Shown in pieces: positions 2,499 to 24,448 of a DNA stretch of 64,000 bases. Source of the DNA: Gemmatimonadota bacterium (GTDB lineage: Bacteria; Gemmatimonadota; Gemmatimonadetes; Gemmatimonadales; GWC2-71-9). Where the stretch lies: assembly GCA_036679645.1 (NCBI GenBank), contig JAZDCY010000056.1, forward strand, positions 75,911-139,910. Direction: 5' to 3'. Position numbers and translations under genes: made by a program. The number at the start of each line of letters is the position of its first letter. The stretch's first letter is position 1. The notes under the pieces are model-generated. The model was not told where the DNA came from. It searched no databases and saw only the letters and a program-made list of their open reading frames with translations.

Positions 2499-3860
2499 TT
2501 AGGTGCCGGCGATCGCTTCACGGGCCGCGGCGACGAGATCGTCTGCAGCCTCACGCGTGGGCGCCTCGGCAATGAGCCGAACGATGGGCTCGGTACCCGA
2601 CGGGCGGATGTGCACCCACCGGTCCGGCCACGCGAGGCGTAGCCCATCCTGTCGGTCGCGCTCGGCATCCGGATACTGCTGCTCGAGGTGCTTGTACACC
2701 GGCTGCAGGTCTCCGCCCCGCGGCGCCTTGGCCTTCACGATCGCGTACCGAGGTCGGCTCTCGACCCGTCCCGCTATGGTACTGCCGTCGGCGGCCAGGA
2801 GATCGAGCACCAGGGCAGCCGCCAGTGGGGCGTCGCGCCCGAGATGGAGGACCGGAAGCATCACGCCTCCGTTCCCCTCACCACCGATGACTGCCCCAGC
2901 TGCCTGCATAGCGCGGGCCACGTTCGCCTCGCCCACCGGTGCCCGGGCCACAGACGCCCCGTAGGCGTTCGCCGCATCGTCCACGACCAGCGAGGTCGAG
3001 AGATTCACGACGACCGGGCCGGGCCCCCGCCGGAGCACGTTCTCTACCGCGAACGCGAGTGTGTAGTCCTCTCCGATCGGCGTGCCCATGCCATCGACCA
3101 GGGCAAGCCGGTCCACGTCTGGATCCACCGCCATCCCAAGATTGGCTCCGACCCGACGTACCTCGTCGCCCAATCGCCCTAGGTGCTCCGGGACCGGCTC
3201 AGGGGACCTCGGGAAAAGACCATCGGTTTCGAGGTCGATTCCGACCACCGTGCATCCCAAAGCATCGAGCAGCCTGGGCATTGTGGTGCCACCGGCTCCG
3301 CGCACACAATCGAGAGCGACTGTAAAGTGTTGTGACCTAATGGCTTCCGTGTCGACATACGAGAGGTCGAGGATCTGACTTAGGTGCCGCTCGATCGCAT
3401 CACCATCGGGCACTATTTCGCCAATCCCGTCCCACCCCACCCGCGGAATCGTTCCGTCCGCCCCATCGACCACCTTGCGACCAGTCTCGGCGTCGAGGAA
3501 AAGACCGTCCGCCCCGACGAACTTCAGGGCATTCCACTCGATGGGGTTGTGGCTTGCCGTGATGATTATCGCGCCACCAGCACCATGGTGCTCGACGGCC
3601 AACTGCGCTGTGGGCGTGGGAATCATGCCGCAATCGATTACGCGGCATCCGACAGACTGGAGGCCGGTCCGTGCGGCGGCCGCGAACATGGGCCCGGAGG
3701 TCCGCGAATCGCGCGCGAGCACCACGGCCGGCCGGCCCGCATCCTGGGCTAGCACGCCGAATGCCGCCGCGTAGCGCGCGACGATATCGGGGGTGAGATC
3801 GGTGCCGACGATACCGCGTACGCCGGACACGGAGATGATCAGAGTCGAATTGCCGGGCAT
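2499..3860 (-). CDS. glmM: phosphoglucosamine mutase (phosphohexomutase family)
   Basis: 453 aa with the active-site ITASHNPIEWNALKF (phosphoserine loop) and an SVSGVRGIVG N-terminus. It lies 14 nt upstream of glmS on the same strand. Confidence 0.8.
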   Translation of the reverse strand: MPGNSTLIISVSGVRGIVGTDLTPDIVARYAAAFGVLAQDAGRPAVVLARDSRTSGPMFAAAARTGLQSVGCRVIDCGMIPTPTAQLAVEHHGAGGAIIITASHNPIEWNALKFVGADGLFLDAETGRKVVDGADGTIPRVGWDGIGEIVPDGDAIERHLSQILDLSYVDTEAIRSQHFTVALDCVRGAGGTTMPRLLDALGCTVVGIDLETDGLFPRSPEPVPEHLGRLGDEVRRVGANLGMAVDPDVDRLALVDGMGTPIGEDYTLAFAVENVLRRGPGPVVVNLSTSLVVDDAANAYGASVARAPVGEANVARAMQAAGAVIGGEGNGGVMLPVLHLGRDAPLAAALVLDLLAADGSTIAGRVESRPRYAIVKAKAPRGGDLQPVYKHLEQQYPDAERDRQDGLRLAWPDRWVHIRPSGTEPIVRLIAEAPTREAADDLVAAAREAIAGT

Positions 3861-3877
3861 TCCTGCCCTTGAAGGAA

Positions 3878-5059
3878 TTAGCCGGTGGCAGGAACCGCAA
3901 TACCCGCGCCAGCCAGGCGGCGCGGCAGACGGCGCCAGGCCCGCCGTGGCGTCGCGATGGGCAGGATACCTATCTCCGGATAAGCGGCGACGAACGTAGC
4001 CACGATCGTCTGGTCGAACTGGGCCCCGCTGTTGGCGCTGAGTTCTCTCAGTGCGGTATCTGGGCTCATGCTCGGACGGTACGACCGAACGGTCGTCATC
4101 GCATCAAAGGCATCGACAACCGACACCAGCCTCGCGTTGAGGGGAATCTCCTCACCCTTCAGCCCGTCGGGCAGGCCGCGGCCGTCCATCCGCTCGTGGT
4201 GAGACCTGACCGTGCCGAGGACAGCCGGCACGTCCCGCAGAAGCGGAGCCATGATACGCGCCCCGATCACCGTGTGTTGCATGATGTAGCGGTATTCCTC
4301 CTCGCTGAGGGCGCCCTGTTTGTTCAGGATGGCCTCCGACACGCCGATCTTGCCCACGTCGTGCAGTTCCGCGCCCAGCTCCACGAGCTGCACCTCGTCT
4401 TCCTCGAAACCAAGCCGGCGGGCCACGGCCCCGGCGTATGCGGCGACCCGCGTCGAGTGGCCCTGCGTGTACTGGTCCTTGGCCTCGAGCGCGTGTACGA
4501 TGCTCTGAATGCCCTCGAGGAATAGCTCCTCAATGCGCAACCCCTGCTGCTGCACGAGTTCTGTGAGGCGGCGCTGATAACGCTGGTTTTCTAGCACCAG
4601 CCGCCGTTTCTCGGCCGCCTGAAGGACGCGGGCGTGAACCTCCTCGAGCTGAAACGGTTTGGCGATATAGTCATAGGCCCCTCGCCGCAGGCACCCGACA
4701 GCTGTCTCGACGTCGGACACGCCGGTTATCATGATCACGGCTACGTCCGGGTAGACTCGCCGCACCCGCTCGAGTAGCTCGATGCCGTTCATTTCCGGCA
4801 TCCGGACATCCGAGAGCACGACGTCGATGTCGGTGGAATCGAGGATCCCCAACGCCTGCCTCCCGGAAGAGGCTGCGATGCAGTCGTGCCCGAGTGCGCG
4901 GAGCGAGCCGAGAAGCGCGGATCGCAGCGTGGGATGGTCGTCGACGACCAGGCACTTGATCCCGGTCGCCGCCGCGCACGGGTGGGTCGGAGGTCGCGCC
5001 TTCTCAGACGCTCGCTTGCCGGTGGAAGAGCGCTCGATGTAGCTTCTCCCGTCACTCAC
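3878..5059 (-). CDS. response regulator with HD-GYP domain (c-di-GMP phosphodiesterase type)
   Basis: Receiver domain: KCLVVDDHP...DVVLSDVRMPEMNG. HD-GYP domain: HSTRVA, ELHDVGKIG, HHERMDGRGLPDGL. The ORF track extends to 5305, but that extension overlaps the divergent PLP gene. I chose the in-frame GTG at 5059, which follows GGAGG (5074..5070). The start remains uncertain. Confidence 0.8.
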   Translation of the reverse strand: MSDGRSYIERSSTGKRASEKARPPTHPCAAATGIKCLVVDDHPTLRSALLGSLRALGHDCIAASSGRQALGILDSTDIDVVLSDVRMPEMNGIELLERVRRVYPDVAVIMITGVSDVETAVGCLRRGAYDYIAKPFQLEEVHARVLQAAEKRRLVLENQRYQRRLTELVQQQGLRIEELFLEGIQSIVHALEAKDQYTQGHSTRVAAYAGAVARRLGFEEDEVQLVELGAELHDVGKIGVSEAILNKQGALSEEEYRYIMQHTVIGARIMAPLLRDVPAVLGTVRSHHERMDGRGLPDGLKGEEIPLNARLVSVVDAFDAMTTVRSYRPSMSPDTALRELSANSGAQFDQTIVATFVAAYPEIGILPIATPRRAWRRLPRRLAGAGIAVPATG

Positions 5060-5077
5060 GCTTCGGCGACCTCCTAG

Positions 5078-6253
5078 ATGGCACGCGTATACGACGAGGA
5101 TCTCCAGTTCGGCTTCAGCACGCGCAGCGTGCATGCCGGTCAGCGACCCGATGCGGTCTCGGGGGCAATCATGCCGCCCATCTATCAGACCTCGACCTAC
5201 GTCCAGGATGGTCTGGGGCGACACAAGGGATTCGAGTACGCGCGTACCCGAAACCCGACCCGGGATGTGCTGGAACGCAACATCGCGGCGTTGGAAGGTG
5301 GGCAATACGGTCTCGCCTGGTCTTCCGGTCTCGCCGCGACCGACGCGGTCCTGAAGCTATTATCGGCCGGGGACCACACTATCTGTGGCGAGAACGTCTA
5401 CGGTGGCACGCACCGGCTCATGGAGCAGGTTTTTCGGCCGCTCGGACTCACCTTCTCATTTGTAGACACGAGGGACGTCGAGCACGTTGAGGCCGCCATC
5501 GGGTCCACCACCCGGATGGTATTCATAGAGACCCCGACCAACCCGATGATGCGGCTCGCCGACCTGTCGGCCATCGGCGAGTTGACCCGCGCGAAGGGTC
5601 TCATGTTCGTGGTGGACAACACGTTTGCCACCCCGTACCTGCAGCGCCCGCTCGAGTTTGGGGCCGACCTGGTGCTGCACTCCACGACCAAGTATCTGAA
5701 CGGTCACAGCGACATGGTCGGTGGAGTGATAGTCACGTCGGACGCCGACCTGGCCGACCGGCTCGCCTTTCTCCAGAACGCGGCCGGGGCGATCCCGGGC
5801 CCGATGGACTGCTGGCTGGCACTGCGCGGCACCAAGACGCTGGCGCTGCGGATGCGCCAGCACGACAGCTCGGGGCGCCAGATCGCGGCCTGGCTGGACG
5901 CGCACCCGAAGGTGGAAACGGTCTACTACCCAGGACTCGAGAGCCATCCCCAGTACGAGCTCGCCTGCCGTCAGATGCGGGGGTTCGGCGGGATGGTATC
6001 GCTGGAACTCGGTTCGCTGGAACGGGCACGTGCCTTTGCCGAAGGCACGAAGATCTTCTCCCTGGCCGAGTCCCTGGGGGGAGTGGAGAGCCTCATTGGC
6101 CATCCTGCCAGCATGACACATGCGTCCGTGCCGAAAGAGATGCGGGAGGCCATGGGACTCACTGACGGGCTCGTCCGACTCTCGGTGGGCATCGAAGAGC
6201 TGGACGATCTGCTGGCCGATCTGGAACAGACGATCAGTGGGATGGATGGTTGA
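5078..6253 (+). CDS. Cys/Met-metabolism PLP enzyme (cystathionine gamma-synthase/lyase family)
   Basis: 391 aa. Family-typical N-terminus FSTRSVHAGQ...PIYQTSTY and PLP-lysine motif STTKYLNGHSD. Confidence 0.85.
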   Translation: MARVYDEDLQFGFSTRSVHAGQRPDAVSGAIMPPIYQTSTYVQDGLGRHKGFEYARTRNPTRDVLERNIAALEGGQYGLAWSSGLAATDAVLKLLSAGDHTICGENVYGGTHRLMEQVFRPLGLTFSFVDTRDVEHVEAAIGSTTRMVFIETPTNPMMRLADLSAIGELTRAKGLMFVVDNTFATPYLQRPLEFGADLVLHSTTKYLNGHSDMVGGVIVTSDADLADRLAFLQNAAGAIPGPMDCWLALRGTKTLALRMRQHDSSGRQIAAWLDAHPKVETVYYPGLESHPQYELACRQMRGFGGMVSLELGSLERARAFAEGTKIFSLAESLGGVESLIGHPASMTHASVPKEMREAMGLTDGLVRLSVGIEELDDLLADLEQTISGMDG

Positions 6254-13641: not shown

Positions 13642-14076
13642 ATGTTGAGAACCGTCTTGTCTACCGCTGCGGGCCTGGGGCTCGCGCTCACGCTCGCACA
13701 GCCTACAGTGGCACAGGAGGATGAGAGCCAGGGCCACTCGCACCCAGTCATCGGGCAGTGGGAGCTGTCGTTCGAGACCCCGCGCGGATCACAGACCATG
13801 ACCCTCACGTTCGAGCTGGACGGAGAGACGCTCAAGGGAACGGCCGAGACGCGACGTGGCACCGTGGAGTTGCGGGACGTGCGCTATGAAGGCAACGAAC
13901 TCGGATTCTCCGTCCCGTTCGGGGGCAGGGGAGGCAGAGGTGGGGGCCGGGGCGGGGGCCAGGGATTCGCTCTCCAGTTCGTGGGCACGATCGATGGTGA
14001 CATGATGGAAGGGAAGCTCCGCATGCCACGCGGTAACAACGAAGCACCGTGGACCGCCACACGGGTGGCCACCTGA
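13642..14076 (+). CDS. small secreted protein with a Gly/Arg-rich insert, function unknown
   Basis: 144 aa. Signal peptide MLRTVLSTAAGLGLALTLAQPTVAQ. Contains the low-complexity segment FGGRGGRGGGRGGGQGF. Confidence 0.6.
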   Translation: MLRTVLSTAAGLGLALTLAQPTVAQEDESQGHSHPVIGQWELSFETPRGSQTMTLTFELDGETLKGTAETRRGTVELRDVRYEGNELGFSVPFGGRGGRGGGRGGGQGFALQFVGTIDGDMMEGKLRMPRGNNEAPWTATRVAT

Positions 14077-14127
14077 TCATCACGGGCTCACCAACGAGGC
14101 CGTTCTCCCCCGACAACGGATTCCATT

Positions 14128-17100
14128 ATGATCCACCGACGCCTCTCGCCGGTCGTGACCGTGTTCCTCGCGGCAGCGGCGACCTCCGCGCACGCCCAGG
14201 TCAGCCAACCTCTCGATTCCACCACGATGAGCGCATTCCGGTGGCGAGCCATCGGCCCAGCCTCTATGAGCGGCCGCATCACGGACGTCGAGGGCATTCC
14301 GAGCCCTTCGAAGACGTTCTTCATAGCGGCGGCAAGCGGTGGCATCTGGAAGACGACCAATGCCGGCACAACGTTCCGCCCCGTGTTCGATCACGAGCGC
14401 GTGATCTCCATGGGCGACATCGCGATCGCCCCGAGCGACACGATGATCGTCTGGGCCGGGACGGGCGAGGAGGATTCCCGCAACTCGATCTCGCCGGGCG
14501 GCGGGATCTACAAGTCGATCGACGGTGGCCTCACGTGGACCCTGATGGGACTCGAGGCCACCCAGCAGATCGGGCGCATCGTGATTCACCCAACGAATCC
14601 AGACGTCGTCTACGTCGCGGCTCTGGGCCACGTTTGGGGTCCAAATCCTGAACGCGGTTTGTACAAGACGACCGACGGCGGCGAGACCTGGGAGTTGATC
14701 AAGTTCATCAGCGACCGGGCGGGCTTTGTGGATGTTGCGATGCATCCCAACAACCCGGACATCCTGTTCGCCTCGAGCTGGGAACGGGTACGCGGTCCGT
14801 ATTTCCTACGGAGTGGCGGACCTGGGAGCGCCTTGTGGAAGACGACCGACGGTGGGGCCAACTGGACCGAGGTTCGCGGGAACGGTTTCCCCGAGACCAT
14901 GCTCGGACGCATTGGGATCGCCATCGCGCCGAGCAACCCGGACATCGTGTACGCCCTGGTCGAGGCCGATTCCACCGAGGGCGGGGGTGGGTTGCTGTCA
15001 GGACTTTATCGCTCCGAAGACGCTGGGGGCTCATGGGAGCGCATGAGCGAGCGCGATTCGCGGCCGTTCTACTACTCGCAGGTCCGCGTCGACCCGCAGA
15101 ACCCCGATCGCGTCTACTGGTCGTCCGGCCCGGTGAATTTCTCCGATGACGGCGGCAAGACCGTCCGCAACGCGACCGTAGGGATTCACGTCGACCACCA
15201 TGCCATGTGGATCGACCCCACCGACCCGGAACACTTCATCGTCGGGAACGACGGTGGCGTGTCGCAGACATGGGACCGTGGCGGAAACTACCGCACGCTA
15301 AACGTCATGCCGCTCGGCCAGTTCTACGCGGTCAGTTACAACATGGAGGTACCCTACCGCGTCTGCGGCGGCTTGCAGGACAACGGCTCGTGGTGCGGGC
15401 CGAGTCGGCGCTCCCGTGGTGCCATCACAAACGAGCACTGGTCCTACATCAGCGGCGGGGACGCGCCTGAATCTGGCAACCGGCAATCAGTCGCGGCTGC
15501 AGAAGCCCGACTGGCGGCAGCGGTACACCACGTACGAAGATTCCGTCATCATCGAACTGCCGGATACGACGCAGCGGCCCAATCGCCAGCAGCGTCGTCG
15601 TATCGAGAGCTTCCGCCAGCAGCAGCACGCCGATTCGGTCAACATGGCGTTGCGCTGGAACTGGAGCACGCCCTTTTTCATCTCCGAGCACTCGCCCACT
15701 ACGTTCTACGCCGGTGCGAGTCGCGTGCTGAAGTCCACGAACCGCGGTGAGGGGCTCTATCCCATTTCACCCGACCTCACGACACAGGACGCCGAGCGCA
15801 TTCGCATCAGCACCGAGACGACCGGTGGGATCACGCGAGACGTCACGAACGCCGAAACGCATAGCACGATAACCGCGCTGGCGGAATCGCCGATCCGTCC
15901 GGGACTGCTCTATGCCGGCACAGACGACGGGAACGTCTGGCTCACGCGAAATGATGGCGGTGACTGGGACGAATTAACCGGTCGGTTCCCCGGCGTTCCG
16001 GCAAAGACGTGGGTGAGCCGTATCGAGCCGTCGCATCACGACTCGGCGGCATTTTATGTCTCGTTCGACGGTCACCGGGAGAACGATTTTGCGCCGTACG
16101 TGTACGTGACGCACGATTTTGGCGCGACGTTCCGGTCGATCGCCAACGATCTTCCAACTGGCGGCCCCAATTTCATTCACGTCATCCGGGAAGATCCGCA
16201 CAATGCCGATCTCCTGTTTGTCGGCACCGACGTCGGCGTCTATGTATCGACAGATCGCGGCGCGTCGTGGCAGCGTTTCATGGAAGGTCTCCCGACGGTG
16301 CCCGTGCACGATCTCAAGATTCACCCACGGGATCGCGAGCTGATCGCGGGGACGCACGGGCGCTCGATCTGGATCGTCGATATCGCAACTCTCGAGCAGC
16401 TCACCAACGAGGTGCTGGCGGCGGACGCCTACCTGTTTGAGCCGAAGACCGCGTATCAGTACAACTCACCGCCGCGGGGCGGGCAGAACTACGGTCACGA
16501 CGTCTTCGAAGCCCAAAGCCCCCGGTATGGGGCGGAGATCGTGTACCGTCGCACGAGCGGGGAGCGCCGCACGCAGACACCCATCGTCATCACGAACGTG
16601 ATGGGCGATACGGTGCAGACGCTGCAGGGACCCGGCACGCCGGGTATCCATCGGGTGACGTGGAACTTTCGCGGTGCGCCGGCGCCCAGGGACCCGCTCT
16701 CGCCATCCCAGCAGCGCGACTCGGTGTTGTTCCTGCGGCGGCTCGATGTCGTGTTCGACTCCGTCGCAGAGGCCGGGACACCGCGCCAGATGCTGGATCG
16801 GATCCGGAACGGTATCGCCTCCGGCAACACGGACCAGCTGCGCCGCCTTGCGGGCTTTGGTGGCGGGGGTGGCGGCGGTGCCTTTGGCCGTGGGCAGAGG
16901 AATCCAGGTCAGTTCAATGAGCGACCCGGTGAGTCGCGGGCCCGCGGGCAACGTGGACCGGGCGCGCGCGGCGGCGGTCAGGGCGGTGCTCGTGCAGCGG
17001 GAGGTCAGGGTGAACCTTCGGGAGGTGCCGGCGGCGGGTTTGCGGGTGCGGGTCGCGAGATGATGCGGGACATCTTCCGGCTGTTCCGTCGGGATCGAGA

Positions 17101-17308
17101 ACTGCGCCGGTACAGTTCCGCGTTCGGCCTTGGTGGGTTCGGATTCGGGGGCCGCGGGCGCGGGGGCGGCGGCGGCTCGTTGGTCGAGACCGGTGACTAT
17201 CTCGTGAGCGTCACGATCGACGACGAGACGATGCGGCGCGTGCTGCGCGTGGAGCGCGTGTCCGGTGGCCGCAACGGGGGCGTGGCGTTCGAGGAGGAGG
17301 AGCGATAG
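14128..17308 (+). pseudogene. sortilin/VPS10-type BNR (Asp-box) beta-propeller protein, reading frame broken near 15460 (pseudogene or assembly error)
   Basis: ORFs 14128..15750 and 15416..17308 carry consecutive parts of one family. The first has a signal peptide, GGIWKTTNAGTTF and GGLQDNGSWCGP...ISGGD. The second has RLNLATGNQSRLQKPDW...VLKSTNRGE...VHDLKIHPRD. The total length of 3181 nt is not a multiple of 3. Confidence 0.7.
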
Positions 17309-17337
17309 GCCACCCCCAAGAAACGATTCCCATCAAG

Positions 17338-17372
17338 ACGCGGGGGCGCAGGACGGCCCCCGCGTTTGTTGT
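17338..17372 (+). terminator. rho-independent terminator candidate after the BNR gene
   Basis: ACGCGGGGGC (17338-47) pairs with GCCCCCGCGT (17356-65) around an 8-nt loop. It is followed by TTGTTGTGT. Confidence 0.6.
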
Positions 17373-17539
17373 GTGGCAACGCGATACACCACGCACTGAA
17401 CGGCGAGCTTGCAGAAAGCATGTGTGCGTCCCACCTTATTCCAATCCGTCCGAGAGGTTCGGTTCTTGAGCGTGGCTGTGCGATTAAGTCTTCGGTCCCG
17501 ACGTGCCTGCCCGTCGTTGGTGCACGTGCCCCGGTCAGC

Positions 17540-17980
17540 ATGACCACCCAGCACGGGTTTACCCTGATCGAGCTCTTGATCGTAGTCGCGATCATCGGGT
17601 TGCTCGTGCTGATGGCCACACCACGGATCGGCATCGTGCTGGTCGGGCAAAGCGTTCACTCCGCGCGCGATGCGTCGATCGGCATGCACGGCAGGGCCCG
17701 CGCGGCTGCTGTCCAGCGCGGTCAGTCGACCCGGTTGGTGATCAGCGGGAACACCCTGCTCATCCGCAGCGAGCATCCCGTCACCGGAGCGGTCGATACC
17801 GTTGGCCCGGTGCGAGACCTCTTTGACCAGTACAGAGTCACCGTGACCTCGAGTCGAGACTCGCTCGTTTTCGATCCGCGAGGTTTGGGAAACGATGGTG
17901 GACCGACGGTCATCACGGTCACCCGGGGTGTGCACGCGGACACAATCGTCATCAGCACATGGGGCAGGATTCTAAAGTGA
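17540..17980 (+). CDS. type IV minor pilin, GspH/FimT-like
   Basis: ATG at 17540 gives MTTQHGFTLIELLIVVAIIGLL, the prepilin cleavage/methylation motif G|FTLIE. 146 aa. Confidence 0.75.
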   Translation: MTTQHGFTLIELLIVVAIIGLLVLMATPRIGIVLVGQSVHSARDASIGMHGRARAAAVQRGQSTRLVISGNTLLIRSEHPVTGAVDTVGPVRDLFDQYRVTVTSSRDSLVFDPRGLGNDGGPTVITVTRGVHADTIVISTWGRILK

Positions 17981-18324
17981 AGGGCTCCGACGGATTCACA
18001 CTCGTGGAGGTCCTCGTCGCGATGCTGATCCTGACGATCGGGATCATTGCCCTCATCGGATCGTCTGCCCTCGTGACGCGCATGATCACCCAGGGGCAGA
18101 TCTTCAGCGAGGCAAGCGCGTTGGCTGCGCAGCGGATCGAGACTTTGCGGAGCGGCGGCTGCGCTGGCATGGGTAGCGGCACTGCAGTCGATGGCCCGTA
18201 TGCGCTCTCATGGACCGTGGTCCCGATCGCTGACGGGAAGGTGCAACGTGTCGAGCTTACCGTAACGATGCCCACTCGCCGCGGGACGACCGACCGGGTC
18301 TTTGCCACCGCTGTCCTGTGTTGA
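17959..18324 (+). CDS. type IV minor pilin, PilV-like
   Basis: GSDGFTLVEVLVAMLILTIG prepilin motif. The start is either ATG 17959 or GTG 17977 (GTGA overlap with the upstream stop). Confidence 0.7.
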   Translation: MGQDSKVKGSDGFTLVEVLVAMLILTIGIIALIGSSALVTRMITQGQIFSEASALAAQRIETLRSGGCAGMGSGTAVDGPYALSWTVVPIADGKVQRVELTVTMPTRRGTTDRVFATAVLC

Positions 18325-19196
18325 TACACATTGAGAACGAACGCGGGTTCACGCTCATCGAGCTCCTGATATCCCTGGTGCTGGCCTCGCTGATCGGTAC
18401 GGCGATCATCAAGACACTCACTGACAGCCAGCAGCTGTACCGAGCGCAGACGGAACGCTCGAGCATGAACAGCAACACACGGATGGCGACGGCGATCCTT
18501 CCTGCCGAGATGCGCGAGCTGAGCGCGACGGACACCATTGGCGGTGACATCACGGCGATGTCGCTCACCGACATCACCTTCAAAGCCATGCGGGGCCTGT
18601 TTTTCACCTGCACCGCACCGGCGGATGGAGGAGCGACGGGCACCGTCGTGCTCTGGGGTACGCGGTCATTCGGAGTGCGCACCGACATCGACGGTGCACG
18701 GGATTCGGTGGTCATCTTCGTGGAGGGTGACTCCAGTACGGCGACAGACAACTACTGGTTGCACGCGGGTGTGACCGGCACCCCCGCCATTGGAACGGCG
18801 TGTCCCGGAGGGGCGGCCAGCATCACGGTGAGTCTGAGCAGTGTCCGACCCATCGGCGGCCTCGGCGGGGTCACTCCCGGCGGCCCGCTGCGCAGTTTCG
18901 AGATGATCCGGATCGCCGCCTACGCCGATGCCCTCGGTGATCGGTGGCTAGGAGCGCAACTGTACAGTGCAGGCGCCTGGGGCGCGATCGAACCGATACT
19001 CGGGCCGCTCGCCCCATCAGGGCTGCAGCTCACCTACTTCAACGCCGCGGGAGCCCCGACCACCTCCGTGGACTCCGTCGCCCGAATCGGGCTCGTCGTC
19101 ATCGGGCAGACATCGATCCCCGTGCGGGGGACGGGTGGGATGCGGCGAGCCGTGGACACGCTGATCACCGCCGTCGCCCTACGGAACAATCGATGA
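18318..19196 (+). CDS. type IV minor pilin, PilW-like
   Basis: ENERGFTLIELLISLVLASLIG prepilin motif. The 292-aa size and gene order match PilW. Confidence 0.7.
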   Translation: MLIHIENERGFTLIELLISLVLASLIGTAIIKTLTDSQQLYRAQTERSSMNSNTRMATAILPAEMRELSATDTIGGDITAMSLTDITFKAMRGLFFTCTAPADGGATGTVVLWGTRSFGVRTDIDGARDSVVIFVEGDSSTATDNYWLHAGVTGTPAIGTACPGGAASITVSLSSVRPIGGLGGVTPGGPLRSFEMIRIAAYADALGDRWLGAQLYSAGAWGAIEPILGPLAPSGLQLTYFNAAGAPTTSVDSVARIGLVVIGQTSIPVRGTGGMRRAVDTLITAVALRNNR

Positions 19197-19217
19197 GAGA
19201 CGGCTAGGGGTTTTGCC

Positions 19218-20336
19218 ATGAAATCACTCCGGCAAGAACGGGGTGTCGCGCTGGTGATAGCTGTATTCGCCCTCGTGGTCATCGGGACGCTGGTGGCCGC
19301 CGCGTTCTTCATAGGTGTGCAACAGCAACGCGTCGGGCGAAACACGTTGACGTTCCAGCAGGCGCTGTCCGCGGCCGAAGAGGGCTTGACGATGCAGGTC
19401 TCCAATTGGAACAGCACCACGTACAACGCGATGGCGATCGGTGACTCCGTAACGTTCACGGGAACGCTGCCGGGAAACGCGGCCTGGTATCGCGGCACGC
19501 TCACCCGGCTGAACCCGATGCTCTACTTCATCCGATCGGAAGGGTTCAGCGCCGATAGTCTCTCGCGCCAGCACGTGGGGTTGCTGATCCGACTCCGTCC
19601 ACTCGAGCTGCAGATCAACGCCGCGCTCGAGACACAGGGCAGAACGGAACTCAGCGGCAGCGCGTTCCTCGACGGCAGCGACGGGGTGCCTGCCGGTTGG
19701 ACCTGCCCACCGGCCGGACCCGCACGCCCCGGGATCCGCATGACGGACTCGACGGAGCTGATCACCCGGGGCGGCTGCAGGGGCTGGGCCTGCCTGACCG
19801 GTGATCCGAAGGTCGAGGAAGATCCGACCATCGACAGCACGTCCCTCATGACCTTTGGGGACGCCGATTTTTCCGACCTCCGACAGTTCGCCAGCAAGAT
19901 CCTGCCGCCCGCGACCTATACGGGCGTCGCGCCTGTCGTGGCCGGTGGCGAGTGCGTGACGTCGGAGATCAAGAACTGGGGAGAACCGCTGGCGCCCGGT
20001 TCCCCCTGTGCGGACTATTTCCCGTTCCTCTATGCCGACGGCAGTATCTCGGTCAACGGCGTTAGGGGCCAGGGCGTGTTGGTAGTGGCAGGCGACCTCA
20101 ACGTGCAAGGCGGGTTCGAGTTCTTCGGGCCCGTCATAATACTGGGGCGGCTTTCCACGCAGGGAATCGGCGGCCACTTCACGGGGGGAGTCATTGCGGG
20201 AAACGTGTCTCTCGATCGGAACCAGATCGCTGGCGCCGCCAGCGCCGCCTACTCGAGCTGCGCGCTGGCCAGGGCGCTCATCGGATCGGCGGTCGCCCGC
20301 CCTCTCGACGAGCGAAGCTGGGCAAACCTCTACTAG
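19218..20336 (+). CDS. PilX-like pilus assembly protein
   Basis: N-terminal RGVALVIAVFALVVIGTLVAAAFF...QAL.AAEEGL resembles the PilX N-terminal domain. It sits directly after the PilW-like gene. Confidence 0.65.
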   Translation: MKSLRQERGVALVIAVFALVVIGTLVAAAFFIGVQQQRVGRNTLTFQQALSAAEEGLTMQVSNWNSTTYNAMAIGDSVTFTGTLPGNAAWYRGTLTRLNPMLYFIRSEGFSADSLSRQHVGLLIRLRPLELQINAALETQGRTELSGSAFLDGSDGVPAGWTCPPAGPARPGIRMTDSTELITRGGCRGWACLTGDPKVEEDPTIDSTSLMTFGDADFSDLRQFASKILPPATYTGVAPVVAGGECVTSEIKNWGEPLAPGSPCADYFPFLYADGSISVNGVRGQGVLVVAGDLNVQGGFEFFGPVIILGRLSTQGIGGHFTGGVIAGNVSLDRNQIAGAASAAYSSCALARALIGSAVARPLDERSWANLY

Positions 20337-20380
20337 CGTGCTCGACCAAGCGTTTCTGACCCAGATGGACAGTTCGGGAG

Positions 20381-21259
20381 GTGGCGCCTAGCTTCGCCCT
20401 TATGGATGCACCCCACCTCATCATCTCGAACCCGCCGCATGACGCGGGGGATCTGCGACCGGTAGCCCCCTGCTTCGGCCTCAGCGTGGCCGAAGTCAGG
20501 ATGAAAACGAACTACCGGGTGCCGGAGATCTGGTTCGCGGAAAGAGATCCGCACGAGGTCGAGCCGATCAACGCACTGCTCACCGAAGCCGGCCTAAAGA
20601 CCGTCGTCCGGACACAGATGGACCTCGCCCAAGTTCCGCCGCAAACCCAGGTCGAGTCCTTTTCGTTTGCCGAGACGGGTTTGGTTGCTCGTTGGGACGA
20701 TAGCGAAGTGACCATACCATACGACGCCGAAACTATCGCCGTGTTCTGCCAGCCGGGTGGAGATGTCGCGGAATCGGAGTCGAGCGGCCGCGGTCTCTCG
20801 GCACGGTTGTCTCACGGCAGCGCCTACACCGGCACACACGGCCGATCCAGCCTGTCGTCGCTCGCGTCACAACTCTCCGCGACGCATAGCTCGACCTTTC
20901 TGGATCTTTACGTGGCCCTCGACGGTGATTTGCAGCGAATCTCGTTCGTCGAGGCGACGGTCGACTTCGCGGGGTTGCACATGCGGCTCCCGCGAGCGAC
21001 GGACAACATGGTGATGTTCGTTGCCGAATGCGAAGATCGGTTTACCAACGCCCAGTTTGACCGACGCCTCGTTGGCATGCTGCTACGCAAGCGGCGGACG
21101 GCACCCACGCAGCCGCCGCCACAAACGTCTGGGCAACGGCGCCGTCTCTCTTTTGCCACGCCGGCGTTGACCGATCTGCTCGAGAAGGTCTCGGATGATT
21201 TGAAGGACGCGTCTCAGCCGGATTTCTCGTCCCGACTGGTCTATCTGACGAAGCGGTAG
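20381..21259 (+). CDS. hypothetical protein
   Basis: 292-aa ORF on the same strand, 44 nt after the PilX-like gene. I recognise no signal peptide or motif. An alternative start exists at the MDAPHL Met. Confidence 0.5.
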   Translation: MAPSFALMDAPHLIISNPPHDAGDLRPVAPCFGLSVAEVRMKTNYRVPEIWFAERDPHEVEPINALLTEAGLKTVVRTQMDLAQVPPQTQVESFSFAETGLVARWDDSEVTIPYDAETIAVFCQPGGDVAESESSGRGLSARLSHGSAYTGTHGRSSLSSLASQLSATHSSTFLDLYVALDGDLQRISFVEATVDFAGLHMRLPRATDNMVMFVAECEDRFTNAQFDRRLVGMLLRKRRTAPTQPPPQTSGQRRRLSFATPALTDLLEKVSDDLKDASQPDFSSRLVYLTKR

Positions 21260-21269
21260 AGGCATTTGA

Positions 21270-21804
21270 TCGCGGCTAAAGCCGCGGCTCGGCTGGTGTC
21301 ACTAAAGTGACGTTAGGGCGGTGGAATGATGATGGTCGCGCGCGGCCGGGATCGCATCCTACACGTATGCGTGACCGGATCTTCGTGCACATCGCGTGGA
21401 CCACCCGAGATCGAGAGCGGACGATGGATCGGCGTGTGGCGGCGTTCCTCGTCGAGGCACTGCCGATCATCGCGAGACAGGAACGCGCGGTCATCCTCGA
21501 GATCGGGATAGTCCGGACCCACCTCCACCTACTCGTTCGACTACATCCAACAACGACGATACCCCGCTTGATGCAGCGGATGAAGGGCGGTACGTCGATT
21601 GTGGCCAACCGGGACGGGATCGCCACGCGCGAGCTGCGTTGGGCCAAGGGCTACAACATCGACTCGGTCAATCCACGAGGCCTCGAGACGGTCCGTCTCT
21701 ATATCCGCAACCAGGCCCTGCGTCACCCCGACGAGGCAATCCCTGACTGGAGCCCCCCACACGTCGCTTCAGCGACATCAGCCGAGTCGCGGCTTTAGCC
21801 GTGG
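21270..21804 (+). mobile_element. RAYT unit: IS200/IS605-type Y1 transposase gene bracketed by inverted 43-bp REP-like double hairpins
   Basis: The reverse complement of 21270..21312 matches 21762..21804 at 36 of 43 positions (counted by hand). Each arm holds two hairpins: GTCAC-TAAA-GTGAC / GTCGC-TTCA-GCGAC and CGCGGC-TAAA-GCCGCG / GCGGC-TTTA-GCCG. Confidence 0.75.
21307..21798 (+). CDS. REP-associated tyrosine transposase (IS200/IS605 Y1 family)
   Basis: HUH motif in VRTHLHLLV and catalytic-Tyr region RLYIRNQALRHP. The likely true start is ATG 21367 (MRDRIFVHIAWTT). The stop codon TAG (21796-98) sits in the loop of the right terminal hairpin. Confidence 0.8.
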   Translation: MTLGRWNDDGRARPGSHPTRMRDRIFVHIAWTTRDRERTMDRRVAAFLVEALPIIARQERAVILEIGIVRTHLHLLVRLHPTTTIPRLMQRMKGGTSIVANRDGIATRELRWAKGYNIDSVNPRGLETVRLYIRNQALRHPDEAIPDWSPPHVASATSAESRL

Positions 21805-21841
21805 AAACCCGGCGGCGAAAACCCTATCTTCTTCCGGACCC

Positions 21842-24448
21842 GTGACCTCCACCGACCGTCTCAAGACCGCCCTCGCCAACCGCTACAAGATTGAGCGGGA
21901 GATCGGCAGTGGCGGCATGGCGACGGTCTACCTCGCCGAGGACCTGAAGCATCACCGTCAGGTGGCGGTGAAGGTGTTGCGCCCCGATCTCGCCGCCACG
22001 CTCGGCCCCGAGCGGTTCATTCGCGAGATCGAGACGGCCGCGCGACTCGAGCACCCGCACATCCTGACACTCATCGACTCGGGTGAGGCGGACGGATTTC
22101 TCTTCTTCGTCATGCCGTTCGTCCGGGGCGAGTCGCTGCGCGAGAAGTTGAACCACGGTGAACTCCCCATTAGCGAGGCCGTGCGCATTCTCCGGGACGT
22201 GGCCGATGCCCTGGCCTACGCGCACGGCGAGGGCCTCATCCACCGCGATGTGAAACCCGACAACGTGCTGCTTTCCGGTCATCACGCAGTCATCACAGAT
22301 TTCGGCGTAGCCAAGGCCGTGAGCGAGGCAACGGGACGCCAGCATATCACGACCGCGGGCGTGGCACTTGGGACGCCTACGTACATGGCACCGGAACAAG
22401 CGTCTGCCGACCCCAACGTCGACCATCGTGCCGATATCTACGCCCTCGGGTTGCTCGCCTATGAGATGCTGACAGGTAGCCCGCCGTTTACAGGACCGAC
22501 GCAGCAGGCCGTGCTGGCGGCGCACATCACGCAAGCGCCGGCGCCGGTGACCGATATGCGCGAGGCCATTCCTGCTGCGCTGGCCGAGTTGGTGATGAAG
22601 TGCCTCGAGAAGAAGCCCGCCGATCGCTGGCAGCGCGCGGAGGACATTCTCACCCGGCTCGATGTGGCGGCTACGCCCAGCATGGGCGTCACGCCCACGG
22701 ATACGCGACCCATCCAGGCCATGCCCGCTGGGCGCACCCGGAGAAACGCCGCCATTCTGGGGGGCGCGGTCGTCGTCGCGGCCGTGGCGGTCGGGGTGAT
22801 CCTGCTTCCGGACGGCGGCTCCCCGTTGGTGCAGGACCGCGTCGTCGTCGGCCTATTCGAGAACGAAACCGGTGACGCGGCGCTCGACCCGATCGGGAAG
22901 ATGGCGGCCGACTGGATCACGCAGGGACTCCAGCGGACGGGGTCTGTCGATGTGATCGCATCCCCGACGGCGCTCCAGGCATCGAACTACGTGCGCGCCG
23001 AGTTGGAGGCGGGACGCGTGGCCGATCCCGTCGAAGCATTGGCGCGCGAAACGCGGGCAGGAATGGTCGTCTCAGGCACCTACTATCGGGACGGTAACAA
23101 CATCCGTCTCCAAGTGCAGATCACAGACGCCGCGCGCGGGAAGTTGATCGGCACGCTCGACCCCGTGATCCGCCACCAAGACTCCGTAACCAGCGGCATC
23201 GAGGCGGTACGCGAGCGTGTCATGGGACTGCTGGCCGTCACCTTGGACGAACGGATCGCCGGTGGGGCCGTGGCGACGGCTCGCCCCCCAACATTCGAAG
23301 CGTACCGCGCGTTCAACGATGGGCTCGAGCGGTACCTCGCGAACAGCAGTGACTCTAGCGCCGCGGCCGCGTTCCACCTCGCGTTCGAGCGGGACACCTC
23401 GTTCCTCGTACCGCTGATCTACGCGGCGCTAGTAGAGCGCAACGCCGGCAGGTACGACGAAATGGATGCGACGACCCGCATCCTCGAGGCGCGTCGCGCC
23501 GAGTTGTCCGACTACCATCAGGCGTGGGTGGATTACAACCGCGCGCGTGTCGACGGAGACAATGAAGCGGCGTATCGCCATATCCGAAGGGCTGCCCAGC
23601 TCGCGCCGGGGTCGAAATCCGTTTACAACACGGCGTTCATTGCCGTGGAGACCAACAGGCCACGGGCCGCACTAGAACGACTCGCACAGCTGGATCCGGA
23701 GCGCGCCCCAATGCGCGGGTGGAGGGACTACTGGCAGGTATTTACCGGGGCAAACCATTTGGTGGGAGAGTTCTCAGCCGAGCTAGAGGCAGCGCGGCGC
23801 GGCAAAATACAGTATCTCGACGCACCCGTTTTTCTGTACTCGGAACTCGTCGCGCTCGCAGCACTCGGGCAACTCGACACGCTCTTGGCACTCATGCCGG
23901 AGGCGGCGGCGAGCACGTCACCCGCCGAGTGGGCGGAACGGCTGAACGGCGTCGTCAACGAAGTTGCTGCCCACCAGCCTGACCGTGCGGGGCCCATGGT
24001 GGATAGCGCCGTTGCCTGGTTTGAGCGCAGGCCGGAACGCGAGCGCTCGGAGCAGTGGTACCGCAACCAGTACCAATTGGCGCTGGCGCGTGCGGGCCGG
24101 CTCGAAGAGAGCAAGGCGATCCTCCAGGACCTCGCGCGGGAGTACCCCGACCAATGGAGTCTGCGCGCGAATCTGGGCGTCCTCACAGCGCACATGGGCG
24201 GCCGCGCTGCAGCGGAGGACCTGTCCGACTGGCTCGCGCAACTCGACCTGCCGCACCTGCGCGGCGCGCACACCGCATGGCGCGCGAGAATCGCGGCGTA
24301 TCTGGACCAACCGGAGGTCGCAGTTCAACTGCTGCGTCAGTCAATTCGCGAGGGGCAGTCCTATTTGTGGATGCACCGCGATCCCGCCTTCGTGGAAGGA
24401 CTCGCCAATTACACTCCTTTTCAGGAGTTGTTGCGACCAAAGGGGTAG
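21842..24448 (+). CDS. Ser/Thr protein kinase with a TM segment and a large extracytoplasmic/TPR-like C-terminal region
   Basis: GTG at 21842. Kinase motifs: GSGGMATVYLA, VAVKVL, HRDVKPDNVLL, DFGVAK, GTPTYMAPE. TM segment: AAILGGAVVVAAVAVGVILL. The ORF-track start at 21599 overlaps the RAYT gene. Confidence 0.85.
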   Translation: MTSTDRLKTALANRYKIEREIGSGGMATVYLAEDLKHHRQVAVKVLRPDLAATLGPERFIREIETAARLEHPHILTLIDSGEADGFLFFVMPFVRGESLREKLNHGELPISEAVRILRDVADALAYAHGEGLIHRDVKPDNVLLSGHHAVITDFGVAKAVSEATGRQHITTAGVALGTPTYMAPEQASADPNVDHRADIYALGLLAYEMLTGSPPFTGPTQQAVLAAHITQAPAPVTDMREAIPAALAELVMKCLEKKPADRWQRAEDILTRLDVAATPSMGVTPTDTRPIQAMPAGRTRRNAAILGGAVVVAAVAVGVILLPDGGSPLVQDRVVVGLFENETGDAALDPIGKMAADWITQGLQRTGSVDVIASPTALQASNYVRAELEAGRVADPVEALARETRAGMVVSGTYYRDGNNIRLQVQITDAARGKLIGTLDPVIRHQDSVTSGIEAVRERVMGLLAVTLDERIAGGAVATARPPTFEAYRAFNDGLERYLANSSDSSAAAAFHLAFERDTSFLVPLIYAALVERNAGRYDEMDATTRILEARRAELSDYHQAWVDYNRARVDGDNEAAYRHIRRAAQLAPGSKSVYNTAFIAVETNRPRAALERLAQLDPERAPMRGWRDYWQVFTGANHLVGEFSAELEAARRGKIQYLDAPVFLYSELVALAALGQLDTLLALMPEAAASTSPAEWAERLNGVVNEVAAHQPDRAGPMVDSAVAWFERRPERERSEQWYRNQYQLALARAGRLEESKAILQDLAREYPDQWSLRANLGVLTAHMGGRAAAEDLSDWLAQLDLPHLRGAHTAWRARIAAYLDQPEVAVQLLRQSIREGQSYLWMHRDPAFVEGLANYTPFQELLRPKG

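Follow-up and report, generated by a model that had tools for sequence, protein, structure and literature searches.

The repetitive extragenic palindromes (REPs) and their partner enzymes, the REP-associated tyrosine transposases (RAYTs), are the classic example of a host that has retained a transposase and, with it, a population of miniature repeats. To our knowledge, these systems have been studied almost only in Proteobacteria, with enzymes of class 2. The present study concerns a tnpA gene for a Y1 HUH transposase, enclosed by two inverted arms, each with a pair of short hairpins, in a 64,000-nucleotide stretch of the genome of a Gemmatimonadota bacterium (order Gemmatimonadales; GenBank assembly GCA_036679645.1, contig JAZDCY010000056.1, positions 75,911–139,910 of the forward strand). 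This whole stretch is called the window throughout the text, and the coordinates refer to it unless another locus is named. The locus is interpreted here, with a probability of roughly 0.7, as a REPtron-like unit of a repeat system specific to Gemmatimonadales.

Several described systems come close to it. Quentin et al. (2018; PMC6006769) divide the Y1 transposases, by the motif of the catalytic tyrosine, into RAYTs of class 2 (Y---NP), class 1 (Y---Q) with its subclass 1.2 (Y---Q--HH), and class 3 (Y----Q). Genes of class 3 are flanked by hairpins with a CnGA foot, present in about 600 copies in Solibacter, and the class 3 repeats of Legionella, Solibacter and Planctomyces are given as CCGAG-CCGCGACC-GTAA-GGGAGCGG (Table S1 in PMC6006769); there is no report of this class from Gemmatimonadota. 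Subclass 1.2, covering proteins from Cyanobacteria and Bacteroidetes, has been reported without REPs and without terminal hairpins (PMC6006769). Bertels et al. (2017; PMC5581495) recognized, in addition, a group of IS200 proteins with RAYT-like behaviour. In the literature searched, including the two papers just cited, no mention of Gemmatimonadetes with a RAYT, REPIN or IS200 was found, nor was anything on Gemmatimonas found in the supplement of Quentin et al. (2018; PMC6006769).

Organization of the locus

The elements of the unit, in the order in which they follow each other on the forward strand, are as follows:

21270–21312, + strand: left arm, one double-hairpin module (covariance model 66.1 bits at 21265–21318, +)
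21271–21286, + strand: left-arm hairpin 1, CGCGGC-TAAA-GCCGCG
21287–21293, + strand: left-arm linker GCTCGGC, invariant, followed by the spacer TGGT
21298–21311, + strand: left-arm hairpin 2, GTCAC-TAAA-GTGAC
21313–21366, + strand: spacer of 54–55 nt between the left arm and tnpA
21367–21798, + strand: tnpA, a 143-residue Y1 HUH transposase (Pfam Y1_Tnp, E 2.3e-18)
21762–21804, − strand: right arm, the same module inverted (covariance model 65.6 bits at 21756–21809, −)
21763–21776, read on +: right-arm hairpin 2′, GTCGC-TTCA-GCGAC, followed by ATCA
21781–21787, read on +: right-arm GCCGAGT with the CCGAG foot, between hairpins 2′ and 1′
21788–21803, read on +: right-arm hairpin 1′, CGCGGC-TTTA-GCCGTG, with one G-T wobble

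The two arms are identical in inverted orientation at 36 of 43 positions, and a repeat finder stretches the match to 49 nt at 84% identity (21273–21321 against 21753–21801). The best 43-nt inverted repeat within 20900–22200 has 37 matches; since 200 composition-preserving shuffles of that segment yielded a mean of 25 and a maximum of only 29, a chance origin of the repeat was ruled out. The inversion is genuine, as the left and the right arm carry their hairpins in opposite order. The stem of hairpin 2 reads GTCAC/GTGAC on the left and GTCGC/GCGAC on the right, i.e. an A-T pair is exchanged for a G-C pair in a compensatory manner, the same difference being present in the closest relative (locus L002, 87% identical). 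In the minimum-free-energy structure calculated for DNA, the left arm forms both hairpins and the right arm hairpin 2 only, its hairpin 1 being weaker and displaced by an alternative pairing.

The right arm overlaps the last 12 codons of tnpA together with the stop codon TAG (21796–21798), two bases of which belong to the TTTA loop of hairpin 1′; the arm thus encodes the last ~12 residues of the protein (VASATSAESRL). The corresponding tail of the family, VASAT..AEPRL, is conserved because the right arm often overlaps the gene end. The spacer on the left presumably holds the promoter and the leader of tnpA; a search of it gave no sigma-70-like site. Concerning other roles of the arms, no match to an Rfam family was obtained at E up to 1, and neither a T-run terminator nor a sigma-70-like site was found within them. 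Both pattern searches and the covariance model run with filters off gave no further copies of the module in the window: the model returned the two arms at 66 bits, the next best match having 10.6 bits.

The initial annotation, based on the letters of the window, had already described an IS200-like Y1 transposase gene between 43-bp inverted arms with a compensatory change in one hairpin, the right arm running over the 3′ end of the gene shortly upstream of a Ser/Thr kinase, and no further hairpins in the window; the recounts and searches given here agree with it in all these respects, and its proposal that the hairpin structure is selected is borne out by the related modules described below.

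Compared with the REP/RAYT systems—known also as REPtrons, TnpA-REP class 2 and the REPINs of Bertels and Rainey—the locus shares a Y1 HUH gene placed between inverted hairpin repeats and, as with the Y and Z REPs, has a left arm distinct in type from the right one. It differs in the repeat itself, which is one long imperfect palindrome with a GT[AG]G foot in the REPs, but two short perfect hairpins with an invariant linker and a CCGAG foot here. The TTTA and TTCA loops seen in the right arm are the norm among the REPs of subclasses 2.7 and 2.8 (PMC6006769). Read on its other strand, the module consists of hairpin 2′, ATCAG, CCGAG and (C/T)CGCGGC-TTTA-GCCGCG; the foot and the first bases of the stem are the same as in the class 3 repeats, which, however, form a single hairpin with an internal loop instead of two hairpins.

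The module family around tnpA homologues

A total of 270 homologues, 52–87% identical to the TnpA of the window, were collected, all the named ones coming from Gemmatimonadales; 80 of the homologous loci were taken with their flanks from metagenomes by protein similarity alone. Nearly all of these 80 loci carry modules on both sides of the gene, and the covariance model detected 289 modules in the 321 kb around them (E-values of this short-calibrated model being rough). The module, ~44 nt long, is composed of hairpin 1 with a stem of 6–8 bp and a TNAA loop, the linker (G/A)CTCGGC, a spacer of 2–6 nt and hairpin 2 with a stem of 5–7 bp and a 4-nt loop; the loops are asymmetric and conserved.

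The stems vary between loci yet remain complementary. Thus CGCGGC, CGTGGC, CGTCGC, CGTCAC, CGCGAG, CGCGGG, GGCGGC, CGCCGC and CGCGAC were found for hairpin 1, and GTCGC, GTCAC, GCCGC, CCCGC, ATCGC and GTCAG for hairpin 2. Across 66 distinct modules—pre-selected for stems of at least 5 bp—hairpin 1 is paired in 99.5% and hairpin 2 in 100%, with five of the six and four of the five pairs, respectively, changed on both sides, i.e. nine of 11 altogether. The covariation score of 0.376 was reached by none of 500 shuffles (0.160 for shuffled modules) and fell to at most 0.116 when the partners were slid against each other. The linker CTCGGC, i.e. CCGAG on the other strand, is invariant in the same 66 modules. 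In a count free of the selection for stems, the 7-nt linker is accompanied by both perfect hairpins in 64% of 222 distinct occurrences within 300 nt of a tnpA end, against 1% of 275 occurrences at least 1 kb from tnpA. On these comparative sequence grounds, the stems of the module are selected for pairing.

The layout of the window, with a module in '+' orientation upstream and one in '−' orientation downstream, is the commonest one (25 of the 61 loci with both flanks), and many loci contain additional modules or doublets, on a single side or on both, with a maximum of 10 to 13 according to the detection criteria. Left arm and start codon are most often 55 nt apart, as in the window, with a second mode at about 75 nt. 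Two further possibilities were considered and abandoned. A longer stem, in which GAGC would pair to the linker's GCTC, is not claimed, being paired in only 44% of the gene-flanking modules and weakly conserved in the solo copies. The ratio of G-T wobbles to A-C mismatches led to no conclusion on the active strand, as hairpin 2 is confounded by register shifts and hairpin 1 is balanced.

Modules dispersed without the gene

The module is not confined to the vicinity of the gene. A scan of species-representative genomes with its 23-nt core, GCCGCGRCTCGGCTGRTGTCRCT, resulted in at least 130 exact matches in at least 46 assemblies, all of them metagenome-assembled genomes (MAGs), and at least 119 tiles of 8 kb. 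Among the matches listed, to which also the counts below refer, 14 are located within 400 bp of a tnpA homologue, and 12–13 of the at least 119 tiles contain any tnpA-like sequence (13 even with 15 diverse queries at E up to 0.01), so that the module is about ten times commoner without the gene than with it. All but two of the core records come from Gemmatimonadota MAGs; of these two, one is a weak match inside a gene and the other lies on a probably misbinned contig. The genomes richest in copies have at least 12, 12, 10, 8 and 7 of them.

The solo copies have sharp ends and unrelated flanks, and 90 of 101 lie outside coding-like open reading frames. Away from tnpA they occur as 158 singles and 24 doublets, all 24 doublets being arranged as '+−', like the two arms of the gene-bearing unit, and none as '−+'. 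In the MAG JANYLJ, the solo copies match the resident tnpA's left arm, with which they also share further bases on either side. An extragenic dispersal as singles and inverted doublets, observed here in the related MAGs, is also typical of the REP/RAYT systems, and so is the lack of plasmid relatives: none of the tnpA relatives was found on plasmids or viral contigs, and an origin from a phage or plasmid was discarded on that account.

The same data bear on the idea that the hairpins belong to the host—as stabilizers of transcript ends, protein-binding palindromes or recombination sites—with the transposase being a passenger or relic. Solo modules are indeed extragenic, some of them a few bases after tRNA genes, the right arm of the window precedes the kinase start by 37 nt, and classical REPs have secondary roles of this kind (PMC2817692). 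This explanation appears quite unlikely, however, in view of the 289 modules in the 321 kb around tnpA genes against none in the window outside the gene's vicinity (~63 kb), of the genome-specific module variants that match the arms of the resident tnpA, of the invariant catalytic residues of the protein and of the lack of a T-run terminator, promoter signal or Rfam family in the searches of the arms.

Several side observations concern the solo modules. In 13 of them a third hairpin, CCCCGGCGAAAGCCGGGG, follows 8–10 nt after hairpin 2 (16 within 60 nt), giving a three-hairpin mosaic in the tiles L106, L117, L128, L145, L154, L184 and others of the MFD-series MAGs; it is absent from the window. 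In the tile L089, a 25-nt direct repeat (3713–3740 and 3903–3930), itself a hairpin (GGGGCCGCGAGCGATCGCGGCCTCG), brackets a gene-less doublet, and its second copy is followed by a T-run. The orientation of solo modules relative to neighbouring genes could be read in 24 clean cases, too few for a conclusion.

The enzyme

The start of tnpA is ATG 21367, at which the N-termini of all 29 aligned homologues begin; the same alignment ruled out GTG 21307 as the start. The database protein (P0002), with 124 residues, begins at an internal methionine and misses the first beta strand (IFVHIAWTT). The motifs of TnpA comprise the HUH motif T51-H52-L53-H54, RWAKGY, and Y112-x3-Q116-x2-R119-H120, the catalytic pattern Y112-x3-Q116 being that of IS608. 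In the 29 homologues, H52, H54, W92, G95, Q116 and H120 are invariant, Y96 and Y112 nearly so, and position 119 is occupied by H or R; the tyrosine motif YIRNQALRHP accords with the family consensus YVRxQxxHHP, or Y-[IV]-R-x-Q-x-x-[HR]-H as a pattern.

The predicted structure shows the HUH fold with a predicted local distance difference test score of 90.8 and is confident except over the final eight residues, which come from the right arm; the tail of roughly 12 residues encoded by that arm is disordered in the model. By fold it matches the structures of both IS608/ISDra2 and RAYT. No conclusion on a cis or a trans active site was drawn from the AlphaFold monomer, since its root-mean-square deviation of 2.8 Å to RAYT and 6–9 Å to IS608/ISDra2 may only reflect monomer modelling. 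Many relatives of 270–299 residues contain two tandem Y1 domains (P0137, P0143, P0145, P0149, P0151, P0156, P0169–P0171 and others) with two HUH motifs and often only one Y---Q--HH, resembling single-chain dimers of the normally dimeric enzyme.

By profiles, TnpA marginally passes the NCBIfam IS200 model (58.6 bits against a cut-off of 55) and fails the RAYT model REP_Tyr_transpos (28.3 bits against a cut-off of 80), and all 29 family members behave in the same way. The family profile retrieved ISDra2 (3.8e-15) and IS608 (1.4e-13) from the PDB, without any sequence match to the TnpA-REP of E. coli (4ER8) at E up to 10. An exhaustive profile search retrieved 70 clusters with a threshold of E 1e-30 and 2126 when it was relaxed to 1e-10. 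Its top 150 matches grade from proteins with THxH/WA.GY into those with DH[VI]H/WQ.GY/YIxNQxEHH, the signature published for subclass 1.2, the latter being the nearest outside relatives at 95–150 bits, against 59 bits for ISDra2. None of these 150 has Y---NP at the catalytic motif, a stray YDRINP string being present in P0228.

Judged by motifs and profiles, TnpA therefore belongs to the IS200 side, nearest to subclass 1.2, and is not a RAYT in the strict sense. With subclass 1.2 it shares the Y---Q--HH signature—the RAYTs having Y---NP instead—and the short length of ~145 residues, as well as the lack of a near-identical second tnpA copy in any of the fetched loci, to which this comparison is restricted; it differs by THLH and WA in place of DH[IV]H and WQ and by its C-terminal domain. 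Concerning class 3, WA fits the W[TA] of that class, the layout is REPtron-like in both, and both have an IS200-like Q in the tyrosine motif. The class 3 proteins, however, contain Y----Q and NHVH, compared with Y---Q--HH and THLH here, and have 178 residues with a 155-residue core, compared with 143.

The passed IS200 profile, the Y---Q motif, and ISDra2 and IS608 as the closest solved structures by sequence also fit an ordinary autonomous insertion sequence of the IS200 type, the arms of which would be subterminal hairpins and the 535-bp unit of which would move by single-strand peel-and-paste. The IS200/IS605 elements (IS608, ISDra2) do resemble the locus in the fold, in the HUH and Y---Q chemistry and in short subterminal hairpins recognized as single-stranded DNA. 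Their ends are direct, however; those of the locus are inverted, with their hairpins in swapped order, so that the same form is presented on opposite strands (cf. PMC6006769); moreover, the locus has no tnpB, no multi-copy identical elements were seen—there is no near-identical second copy in any locus or among the 270 homologues, which at 52–87% identity are not the clones expected of an insertion sequence—and the hairpins spread without the gene. The remaining evidence on this explanation comes from the neighbourhood.

Neighbouring genes and junctions

The unit is bordered by the following genes:

20381–21259, + strand: open reading frame of 292 codons without a Pfam match, its stop 10 nt before the left arm; part of the 17309–21251 block
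21842–24448, + strand: Ser/Thr protein kinase with TPR repeats (Pfam Pkinase, E 2.7e-51)

The kinase begins with GTG 21842, 37 nt past the right arm; in the L002 orthologue this codon is ATG. Members of the tnpA family repeatedly have a kinase gene beside them. The locus was compared with the relatives L002 and L004: the arms are kept in L002, and the sequence joined to the left arm differs in each of the three genomes, every junction ending at that arm. In the window, a pseudopilin block and the 292-codon frame abut the arm; this block (17309–21251, 3.9 kb), consisting of pseudopilin-like genes with N_methyl motifs and two open reading frames without a family match, is absent from L002, where the stop codon of a BNR gene lies 10 nt from the left arm. 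In L004, the homology stops at position 13922 of the window, 7.3 kb (13922–21265) being missing. On the right side, L002 contains, directly after its first right arm, a segment (2803–6165) with a partial 3′ copy of tnpA and its second right arm, a PhdYefM/PIN toxin-antitoxin pair and a paralogue of the kinase, and only then the orthologue of the window kinase (from 6170). Five loci (L020, L036, L054, L057 and L060) share one junction, the right arm being joined directly to a truncated 5′ piece of a Ser/Thr kinase gene, about 28 codons long; in L020 (3782–3856 and 4481–4555) this piece has 84% identity with the beginning of the intact kinase across the unit. These junctions suggest that the arms mark recurrent breakpoints of deletions and gene-fragment junctions and that the enzyme still remodels its neighbourhood.

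It should be noted that the partial second 3′ copy of tnpA with its own right arm adjoining the unit in L002, as well as the three left junctions, would also suit an autonomous IS200-type element. On the other hand, 13 loci keep an orthologous kinase as the neighbour of tnpA, and searches of plasmids and viral contigs yielded no relatives; together with the inverted ends, the missing clonal copies and the abundance of gene-less modules, this makes such an element an unlikely explanation of the locus.

The kinase of these 13 loci, divergently oriented beside tnpA, is 70–98% identical among them, with tnpA much more diverged. The loci in which tnpA is more diverged than the neighbouring kinase include L003, L005, L015, L020, L036, L041, L043, L051 and L052. 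Between L003 and L020, for instance, the kinase is 98% identical as protein and about 90% as DNA, compared with 68% and about 70% for tnpA, the drop in DNA identity beginning at the start codon of the kinase. A tnpA so diverged beside a conserved kinase suggests cassette replacement or very fast evolution.

The two kinase layouts also raise the idea of an invertible cassette, in which the arms would act as crossover sites and flipping of tnpA would change the sequence upstream of the kinase: the kinase is divergent and beside the left arm in the 13 loci, co-oriented and beside the right arm in the window and L002, and the orientation of the module relative to the kinase is equal in both layouts. 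The window kinase, however, is only 56–58% identical to those of the 13 loci, being thus a paralogue at another locus, the arm–kinase spacer shows no conservation, and no two close strains were found to differ in orientation, which makes this idea highly improbable.

Some observations concern the assemblies of the region. At position 15463, the window has 71 bp fewer than both L001 (3970–4040), a 100%-identical Logan assembly of the same strain, and L002; the loss, not a multiple of three, shifts the frame of a BNR/sortilin-like gene and represents either a real pseudogene or an assembly error. L001 (Logan contig SRR32233994_10946) ends at position 21940 of the window, ~135 nt after the right arm, within the start of the kinase gene. 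Two more kinase paralogues are present in the window near 49.8 and 52.6 kb, and the break of the contig was therefore probably caused by a repeat.

Interpretation and significance

The view of the locus as a REPtron-like unit has several points against it. The protein classifies by profiles and PDB sequence matches with the IS200-type enzymes and not with the RAYTs. The covariance model found no solo module in the window. The copies in the related genomes amount to tens per genome—these numbers being lower bounds—and not to the hundreds typical of classical REPs, and the MAG bins in which they were counted may mix strains. The modules used for the covariation had been pre-selected for their stems, which the linker count made without that selection mitigates but does not remove. 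As to the window, the absence of solo copies from 64 kb says little about its source genome, because one 724-kb contig has four exact copies of the core and the density is thus low.

The initial annotation had called the arrangement that of RAYT and REP. This holds with regard to the REPtron-like organization and to the dispersal of the module without the gene in related genomes, whereas the strict RAYT label does not, given the Y---Q--HH motif, 28.3 bits against the required 80 and the lack of a GT[AG]G foot. A plain IS200-like insertion had been envisaged there for a protein grouping with ordinary IS200 TnpA and for hairpins without other copies; the protein does group on the IS200 side, yet other copies of the hairpins exist in the related genomes. 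The REP-like reading is thus supported for the family, from the related genomes.

The DNA repeat is closest to class 3 and the enzyme closest to subclass 1.2. Tentatively, and with slightly less than even confidence, the unit may represent a REP-type system of Gemmatimonadales not described so far, characterized by a bipartite double hairpin, the invariant CCGAG/CTCGGC linker and a Y---Q--HH enzyme similar to subclass 1.2, i.e. from a branch reported without a DNA partner.

By analogy with IS608/ISDra2 and TnpA-REP (PMC3479197, PMC3333891), TnpA would bind the folded hairpins when the DNA is single-stranded and would read the invariant unpaired linker, or foot. Y112 and the metal bound by the HUH motif would then cut and rejoin the DNA, by which modules and doublets might be copied or moved. 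The gene itself would stay put between its arms, since it could not ride along with two arms presenting the recognized form on opposite strands. The window, with one arm per side, would represent the minimal form of the system.

For annotation, the covariance model can be used to mark the module repeats in Gemmatimonadota MAGs, in which they probably cause assembly breaks and mis-called gene ends. With regard to the enzymes, the module offers a concrete candidate for the DNA substrate of a Y1 branch without a known partner and, should the proposed system be real, it would be the first candidate substrate for the orphan Y---Q--HH branch, and the system would provide an independent link between the IS200, class 3 and RAYT systems. 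An IS200-side enzyme tied to dispersed hairpins in another phylum suggests that such partnerships between a transposase and a population of miniature repeats arose more than once.

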